Below are positions 60,950 through 61,119 of a DNA stretch of 64,000 nucleotides, one piece after another. The stretch is taken from assembly GCF_013167455.1 (NCBI RefSeq), contig NZ_CP038328.1; one strand, 5' to 3'. Made by a program: the position numbers and the translations under genes. This stretch comes from Escherichia coli O157:H7. GTDB taxonomy: Bacteria > Pseudomonadota > Gammaproteobacteria > Enterobacterales > Enterobacteriaceae. Below the pieces are notes generated by a model, which was not told the origin of the DNA, did no database searches, and was given only the letters and a program-made list of their open reading frames with translations. The number at the start of each line of letters is the position of its first letter. Within the stretch, counting starts at the first letter, position 1.

Positions 60950-61119
60950 ATCGCTCAACCGGGTGGAAGGTGAGAGGTTAATGTCTTTCATTTGTGTACC
61001 TGATTGCGAACCAATTTAGCATTTGTTGGCTAGATGGTTTCGCAATGAACTGTTAATAAACAAATTTTTCTTTGTATGTGATCTTTCGTGTGGGTCACCA
61101 CTGCAAATAAGGATATAAA
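60950..61119 (+). promoter_or_regulatory. thrS 5' leader / translational operator region
   Basis: Position directly upstream of thrS; ThrRS is known to autoregulate by binding a tRNA-like leader structure. The structure was not folded here. Confidence 0.4.

Follow-up and report, generated by a model that had tools for sequence, protein, structure and literature searches.

Three negative-feedback devices acting on translation initiation are carried, with a probability that we put at about 95%, by 3 kb of E. coli O157:H7 DNA at the end of the window (the whole 64,000-nucleotide stretch that was analyzed): an operator for threonyl-tRNA synthetase (ThrRS) in the thrS leader, the AUU initiation codon of infC and an operator for ribosomal protein L20 in infC-rpmI-rplT. 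The sequences, folds, complementarity, conservation and covariation, and the identity to E. coli K-12 reported here come from the present analysis, and protein binding and repression are taken from experiments with K-12. An initial annotation, made from the sequence, had counted three post-transcriptional control devices in this short segment, and all three are present in the sequence.

The thrS-infC-rpmI-rplT locus and its identity to K-12

The annotated gene order is espL1 on the minus strand, followed by thrS, infC, rpmI and rplT, and then by the Phe leader with pheM. The genes to which the three devices relate are as follows:

61120–63048 (+), thrS, threonyl-tRNA synthetase, 642 aa, repressor of the first operator (open reading frame and annotation)
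63052–63594 (+), infC, translation initiation factor IF3, 180 codons (annotation; identical to K-12)
63691–63888 (+), rpmI, L35 (open reading frame and annotation); directly repressed by L20 according to PMC1888825
63942–64000 (+), first 59 nt of rplT, which encodes the repressor L20; the window ends within this gene (annotation)

The ThrRS protein gave a full-length match to PDB 1qf6, and its core (242–642) matched a sequence group that includes 1kog. The control of rplT is indirect, through translational coupling to rpmI (PMC1888825).

Many E. coli O157:H7 chromosomes carry the region 60700–64000 with 100% identity, and a match to it is present in all but one (5425) of the 5426 complete genomes of E. 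coli. For the thrS leader alone, identity was at least 95% in 5424 of these 5426 genomes, and the K-12 derivative XL1-Blue matched it at 100%. Comparison with K-12 MG1655 gave only 18 differences, all inside thrS, with zero differences over positions −200 to +21 of thrS and over 62936–63969. Because the regulatory parts are identical to those of K-12, the experimental literature on K-12 applies to them base for base.

On the 5′ side of the locus, 58699–60597 (−) holds an intact 632-aa open reading frame, annotated as the type III secretion effector EspL1 in O157:H7, and the counterpart position in K-12 is the arpB pseudogene. A promoter scan placed the best promoter-like site of the region at 62836–62864 (TTGAGA-17-TAAAAT, 10/12 matches), inside thrS and about 190 nt 5′ of the infC AUU; this site may be one of the internal infC promoters of the older literature.

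The ThrRS operator in the thrS leader

The non-coding stretch 60950–61119, directly 5′ of the thrS ATG at 61120, had been put forward in the initial annotation as a site of feedback by ThrRS, and this claim is borne out by a four-domain operator, by identity to K-12, by folds and covariation, and by published work (PMC11088916, PMC3858243). In the four-domain model of the thrS operator, domain 1 and the 3′ portion of domain 3 serve the ribosome, and ThrRS binds domains 2 and 4 for their likeness to the anticodon arm of tRNA-Thr (PMC11088916, PMC9976931). The corresponding features of the window are as follows:

60943–60951 (+), extended −10-like motif TGTTAACAT, read from the sequence, its placement fitting a thrS start near 60958
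61003–61046 (+), operator domain 4, irregular 17-pair stem with an 8-nt loop AUUUGUUG (61021–61028) (MFE and centroid folds)
61047–61071 (+), operator domain 3, A/U-rich linker, unpaired in the centroid and RNAalifold consensus folds
61072–61106 (+), operator domain 2, mimic of the tRNA-Thr anticodon arm (folds and covariation)
61107–61122 (+), operator domain 1, Shine-Dalgarno UAAGGA (61108–61113) and AUG (61120–61122) (sequence)

The fold of 60958–61140 had an MFE of −51.6 kcal/mol against −38.2 ± 3.8 kcal/mol for shuffled sequences, giving z = −3.5 with 1 of 200 shuffles as good, in a control that ignores phylogeny. The hairpins 61003–61046 and 61078–61098 were present in both the MFE and the centroid folds. 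Conserved structure is limited to 61003–61122, and 60950–61002 varies among related genomes. The stem of domain 4 carries one bulged U and one unpaired A, and its loop presents a threonine-anticodon-like UGU at 61024–61026. Part of domain 3 is paired in the MFE fold, unlike in the centroid and consensus folds, where the U-rich UUUUUCUUU at 61065–61073 is unpaired except for its last two bases, which open the lower stem of domain 2. A ribosome-binding site split in two has its upstream half in the U-rich 3′ portion of domain 3 (PMC3858243, PMC11088916).

Domain 2 folds with an upper stem of 7 pairs (61078–61084 with 61092–61098) and a lower stem of 5 pairs (61072–61076 with 61102–61106), the latter found independently by RNAalifold. 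Its 7-nt loop, UUCGUGU (61085–61091), holds the threonine anticodon CGU at 61087–61089, i.e., −33 to −31 with the A of AUG as +1, and this triplet is preceded by a U, as the anticodon is in tRNA. In K-12, a change of the CGU of this loop to CAU has been reported to affect repression, switching control to MetRS. The Shine-Dalgarno sequence of domain 1, UAAGGA, is the one stated for E. coli thrS, in which a bipartite ribosome-binding site is interrupted by the hairpin that ThrRS recognizes (PMC3858243). The assignment of 61003–61122 as a ThrRS translational operator is supported, with binding and repression by ThrRS expected here from experiments on the identical K-12 sequence.

[quoted passage not shown] Domain 2 would separate the two halves of the split ribosome-binding site, i.e., the U-rich end of domain 3 and the Shine-Dalgarno UAAGGA, and bound ThrRS would keep the 30S off the mRNA because domain 2 sits between these halves. 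Uncharged tRNA-Thr would compete with the mRNA for ThrRS. We take the start of thrS transcription to be −162 (60958), as in the older thrS literature, and the motif TGTTAACAT at 60943–60951 is a putative −10 for a start near that position; a simple promoter scan did not list the TGTTAACAT site.

Two other elements of the leader were considered and set aside. A 5′ hairpin at 60960–61002 is not regarded as part of the operator, being present in the MFE fold but absent from the centroid fold and unconserved. A small open reading frame (ATG 60981 to TAG 61019, encoding the peptide MSFICVPDCEPI and preceded by GAGAGG) is attributed to chance, since 30 leaders of the same architecture (class A, below) lack a consistent start, frame or presence. 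Salmonella carries a similar small leader frame, a likeness that follows from conservation of the domain 4 stem.

A different type of control, transcription attenuation of the T-box or leader-peptide kind as in Bacillus, might be envisaged for this leader in place of a translational operator, as the B. subtilis thrS and thrZ leaders have a leader terminator (PMC3997798) and the adjacent pheST operon uses a leader-peptide attenuator. However, no T-box or other leader family matched at E ≤ 10, no terminator-like hairpin with a U-tract was found in 60950–61119, and the sole small leader frame (60981–61019) has zero threonine codons and is unconserved; on these grounds, attenuation of thrS is ruled out for practical purposes. 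Domain 2 abuts the Shine-Dalgarno sequence, fitting control at the ribosome-binding site.

Conservation of the thrS operator among Enterobacterales

A scan for relatives with one genome per species gave 80 loci across Enterobacterales with ThrRS 85–99% identical, and conservation was assessed in an alignment of 81 leaders and in a 29-sequence subset sharing the architecture of the window. In the 81 sequences, the upper stem of domain 2 was paired in 99.8% of cells, with 4/7 pairs compensatory (54 cells), against ≤55% for slid partners. The lower stem was 97.5% paired, with 3/5 pairs compensatory, in the alignment fitted to the covariance model. The triplet in the loop of domain 2 was CGU in 77/81 leaders and UGU in the other four (4/81), both being threonine anticodons; UGU was seen in Lelliottia and some Enterobacter (L015, L017, L020, L027). 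All members of the 29-sequence set have the TAAGG of the Shine-Dalgarno sequence, which is also nearly invariant among the 81 leaders.

In the 29-sequence set, domain 4 showed changes on both sides at 14/17 pairs, and the two hairpins together gave 87% pairing as compared with 33–44% when slid. When supplied with no structure, RNAalifold returned domain 2, the apical stem of domain 4 and three pairs of the domain 4 lower stem. A simple search for hairpins detected an xGU loop about 100 nt 5′ of the AUG in about 55/81 leaders, and most of the remaining leaders have this loop in the model alignment. In about half of the related genomes, the domain 4 lower stem is unconserved. In the insect symbionts Ca. 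Pantoea persica and Ca. Erwinia dacicola (L066, L074), AU replaces GU in the domain 4 loop (AACAUGG and AAUAUGG), which may represent decay of the second ThrRS contact.

Two architectures of the upstream half of the operator

In the part lying 5′ of about −51, two architectures are found among the thrS leaders (loci L002–L081, about −170 to −51; 61003–61071 in the window). Class A has a long irregular domain 4 stem with the loop NNN-NGU-KR, and its members include the window, E. albertii, Salmonella arizonae, Yersinia, Erwinia/Pantoea and Lelliottia. Class B has a 6-pair hairpin, 5/6 pairs of which are compensatory, with the loop A-R-RGU-R-N-A (e.g., AGAGUGAA); no conserved lower stem was predicted for this class, which comprises Citrobacter, Klebsiella, many Enterobacter, Serratia, Rahnella, Pectobacterium, Hafnia and Proteus. 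The hairpins of both classes lie about 100 nt 5′ of the AUG, and both loops carry GU after any base. The two classes alternate within Atlantibacter, Superficieibacter, Phytobacter, Cedecea and Serratia.

Such a patchy distribution within genera would imply repeated recombination. A tentative reading, to which we give somewhat less than even odds, is that the thrS operator is modular, with domains 1–2 nearly fixed throughout Enterobacterales and the upstream half exchanged repeatedly by recombination, the GU loop being kept as a second contact for ThrRS. No description of the two-architecture pattern was found in the more recent literature, to which the search was confined, and the pattern provides a small lead on the evolution of a tRNA-mimicking operator.

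A genome labelled E. coli SCPM-O-B-8794 (L002, 1–1400) has a Citrobacter-like leader and, between yniD and thrS, is without the espL1/arpB gene. In the flanks, its identity to the window is only 88–95%, and at the foot of domain 2 (61069) homology sets in again. Because a flank identity of 88–95% is low for members of the same species, this leader is not taken as a polymorphism within E. coli, and whether the genome is strictly E. coli may be in doubt.

Covariance models and Rfam

Rfam 15 (4227 families, including T-box and L20_leader) matched neither the ThrRS nor the L20 operator, at gathering score in the window or at E ≤ 10 in 60700–64000. The sole gathering-score match in the 64 kb was the ES036 (CssrF) sRNA at 40483–40525 (−), with 42.9 bits against a threshold of 37.6. 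As a positive control, the same scan of a longer O157 locus gave a 75-bit match to the Phe leader, 0.4 kb past the end of the window. This match (RF01859; L001:6715–6839, about 64414–64538 in window numbering) is the pheM/Phe leader attenuator 3′ of rplT, so that the next post-transcriptional device, the fourth, is found 0.4 kb 3′ of the window. Rfam typically lacks the ribosomal-protein regulators of E. coli, according to Fu et al. (PMC3616713), who left the L20 pseudoknot site unaligned on account of its overlap with infC.

A covariance model, R1, was built from the 29-sequence thrS leader alignment (129 positions, 29 pairs). Over both strands of the 64 kb it gave a single match, at 60998–61125 with 137 bits, which is to be expected with the window itself in the seed. 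Outside the seed, 52/52 loci gave one match ending at the thrS start, with scores of 63–95 bits and E values of 2e-15 to 2.5e-9. These matches show a conserved element and alone are no proof of structure, because domain 2 and the Shine-Dalgarno sequence, both nearly invariant, contribute much of the score.

Since the Phe leader control was found and the purpose-built model works, the null result with Rfam reflects missing models, not missing structure. The initial annotation had equated the lack of a covariance-model match with refutation, an equation that misfires in this case: the Rfam null at E ≤ 10 arises from absent models, and R1 detects the thrS operator. As Rfam 15 misses both operators, automated annotation overlooks them and an Rfam-based test returns a false negative. 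The 81 thrS leaders, the 72 infC-rpmI junctions (below) and the custom model could seed new families.

The AUU initiation codon of infC

The second device is the start codon of infC itself:

63052–63054 (+), infC AUU initiation codon, target of IF3 autoregulation (sequence; annotated start at position 5353 of the annotated locus)

The AUU start named in the initial annotation is present, as ATT at 63052–63054, and the non-canonical start of infC is the target of IF3 autoregulation, for which a mechanism has been described (PMC5499595). The thrS stop codon lies at 63046–63048, the infC ATT begins three bases on, and GGAGGAA is found just 5′ of this ATT, within the end of thrS. Among the related Enterobacterales loci with a readable junction, the start was ATT in 71/71. 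In K-12, a change of AUU to AUG has been reported not to leave IF3 autoregulation intact. Mechanistically, IF3 would destabilize initiation complexes on non-canonical start codons, so that high IF3 would lower the translation of its own AUU-started mRNA (63052).

The L20 operator in infC-rpmI-rplT

The features of the third device are as follows:

63361–63403 (+), stem S1, inside infC, infC nt 310–352 (fold of 63340–63420)
63381–63388 (+), 5′ strand of pseudoknot S2, ACUCCGCA, within the S1 loop
63670–63677 (+), 3′ strand of pseudoknot S2, UGCGAAGU, directly 5′ of the rpmI Shine-Dalgarno-like GGAAG (63678–63682)
63585–63657 (+), L20-binding site 2, imperfect stem-loop (centroid fold of 63585–63700)
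63612–63639 (+), t1 hairpin, 12 pairs (7 G-C), UUCG loop, then UUUGUU (terminator scan and fold)

Feedback by L20 had been located in the 96-nt infC-rpmI spacer (63595–63690). The coordinates of this spacer are right and an L20 operator was identified at the junction through identity to K-12 (PMC1888825), but it is not confined to 63595–63690, as S1 lies about 290 nt upstream, in infC. In the numbering of Allemand et al. (PMC1888825), infC n corresponds to 63051 + n and iris n to 63594 + n (iris being the infC-rpmI spacer). All residues named in that work are the right base in the window, both in infC (A317, C318, U332, G335, U341, U345 and, in the stop codon, A542 and A543) and in iris (G1, G2, G53, C54, C55, U56–58, G59 and C78).

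S1 comprises a lower helix (63361–63368 with 63396–63403), a bulge (C63369 and U63370), an upper helix (63371–63377 with 63389–63395) and a loop (63378–63388), and its MFE fold gives the published A317–U345 pair (A63368–U63396) and the bulged C318 (C63369). In 72 sequences, S1 was 94.4% paired, with one U-A to C-G switch in 16 sequences at synonymous sites and one lower pair (63363–63401) unpaired in 52/72. The two S2 strands form 7 pairs with one C·A mismatch, and G63386–C63672 is the published G-infC335/C-iris78 pair, at which compensatory mutants support S2 pairing (PMC1888825). In K-12, the single changes G63386C and C63672G have been reported to lose L20 repression and the double mutant to restore it. 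S2 was paired in 99.8% of cells in the same 72 sequences; 6/7 of its pairs never vary, so that no covariation can be read, both strands being invariant in Enterobacterales. On the intergenic side, AACAATGCGAAGTGGA is almost invariant in the 72 sequences and the spacer around it varies.

Conservation at 63361–63403 could in principle stem from coding constraint together with the codon bias of a highly expressed gene, and not from an RNA element S1/S2, given that IF3 is highly conserved, that many infC codons elsewhere are also invariant and that S2 shows no covariation. However, synonymous codon diversity in the 15 S1/S2 codons was about half of that in the 60 other codons of the infC 3′ half (0.36 vs 0.72 bits; one-sided Mann-Whitney p about 0.004, a rough value since codons are not independent). 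Neither the double change at synonymous positions that preserves an S1 pair in 16 sequences nor an intergenic partner strand that stays almost invariant amid varying surroundings fits with coding constraint, and the G335/C78 compensatory mutants back the pairing (PMC1888825). Coding constraint is therefore a very improbable explanation, and S1/S2 is read as an RNA element.

Site 2 is built from helices pairing 63585–63590 with 63652–63657 (GAAACA/UGUUUC), 63594–63597 with 63647–63650 and 63606–63609 with 63642–63645, with t1 as a cap. In its core, G-iris1, G-iris2 and C-iris3 pair with C55, C54 and G53, with the adenines of the infC stop codon at the junction, and these core pairs are 97–100% kept in the 72 sequences. 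The fold agrees with the published pairs and with the residues of mutation-altered reactivity (PMC1888825). The region around the infC-rpmI hairpin folds with z = −3.4 and 0/200 shuffles as good; both this region and the thrS leader (z = −3.5) fold beyond their shuffles in the secondary-structure check that the initial annotation had proposed.

The hairpin that had been noted at about 63611–63634 is indeed strong, but it runs from 63612 to 63639, with 12 pairs by terminator scan and fold. Its earlier description as a control site holds insofar as it caps L20 site 2; it is the t1 terminator stem and not itself the protein-recognition element. Apart from t1, the terminator scan of the region gave no strong terminator-like site. 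The t1 stem together with the 63606–63609/63642–63645 helix showed changes on both sides at 16/16 pairs and was 90% paired in a structure-blind alignment of the 72 sequences.

These properties are also those expected if 63612–63639 were merely an intrinsic terminator, curbing read-through from infC into rpmI-rplT and having no part in L20 feedback: the hairpin fits the terminator pattern (12 pairs, 7 G-C, UUCG loop, UUUGUU), it is named the t1 transcriptional terminator in the legend to Figure 1 of PMC1888825, and its sequence varies freely with pairing kept, as if the stem alone mattered. However, the U-tract is weak (UUUGUUCGCC), the invariant strands on either side of t1 (AAGGC and UUCGCC) pair with each other and so enclose it in site 2, and mutations iris1-2 and iris53-55 abolish L20 control (PMC1888825). 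For the stem taken by itself a terminator role alone may hold, but a terminator-only t1 fails to explain the invariant flanks or the published site 2 mutants and is considered unlikely. The roles of terminator and site 2 cap are not mutually exclusive.

Binding of L20 and repression of rpmI at this locus are supported by K-12 experiments on what is, base for base, the same operator, and the steps would be as follows. In the rpmI leader, free L20 would bind one or the other of two sites resembling its 23S rRNA site, site 1 being the pseudoknot S1 + S2 (63361–63403 with 63670–63677) and site 2 the imperfect stem 63585–63657. This binding would repress rpmI translation, and rplT would fall with it via translational coupling. 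Both L20 sites are required, each alone binds with similar affinity, and an operator holds only one L20, which may repress either by competition or by trapping of the 30S subunit (PMC1888825).

The rpmI interior (63769–63790) pairs with the rplT ribosome-binding site (about 63913–63942) in both the MFE and the centroid folds, and the rpmI-to-rplT fold as a whole was no better than shuffles (z = −0.27). The predicted pairing would fit the reported structure-dependent coupling and is given little weight. A promoter-like site, TTAACA-18-TAAAAT (63663–63692), overlaps the rpmI ribosome-binding site; 7 such sites were found against 4.7 expected, which gives no sign of function, and the candidate was discarded.

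Comparison with known systems

The thrS, infC and L20 controls of the window are already known textbook systems and bring nothing new for E. coli biology. The Bacillus-type L20 leader (Rfam L20_leader) shares the repressor and the idea of mimicry of the 23S rRNA site with the operator described here (PMC1865079, PMC3616713), but differs in lying upstream of infC, in acting by transcription termination and in having another fold, and it gave no Rfam match here at E ≤ 10. The rpmI-rplT operator of E. coli K-12 (Chiaruttini, Guillier, Allemand, Springer) is identical in sequence to that of the window, in which S1, site 2, t1 and the complementarity of the S2 strands were all recovered and rplT is cut by the end of the window. 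For IF3 autoregulation at the infC start, the AUU of the window is the same as the known target, with no difference.

The ThrRS-binding thrS operator of E. coli K-12 (Springer, Romby, Ehresmann et al.) shares its four domains, its CGU and UGU loops and its Shine-Dalgarno sequence with the window, with −200 to +21 identical and no difference. In comparison with this K-12-type operator, the half 5′ of domain 2 in relatives may be a short hairpin with the AGAGUGAA loop. The three devices taken together are classic cases, dissected by experiment, of feedback on translation through molecular mimicry.
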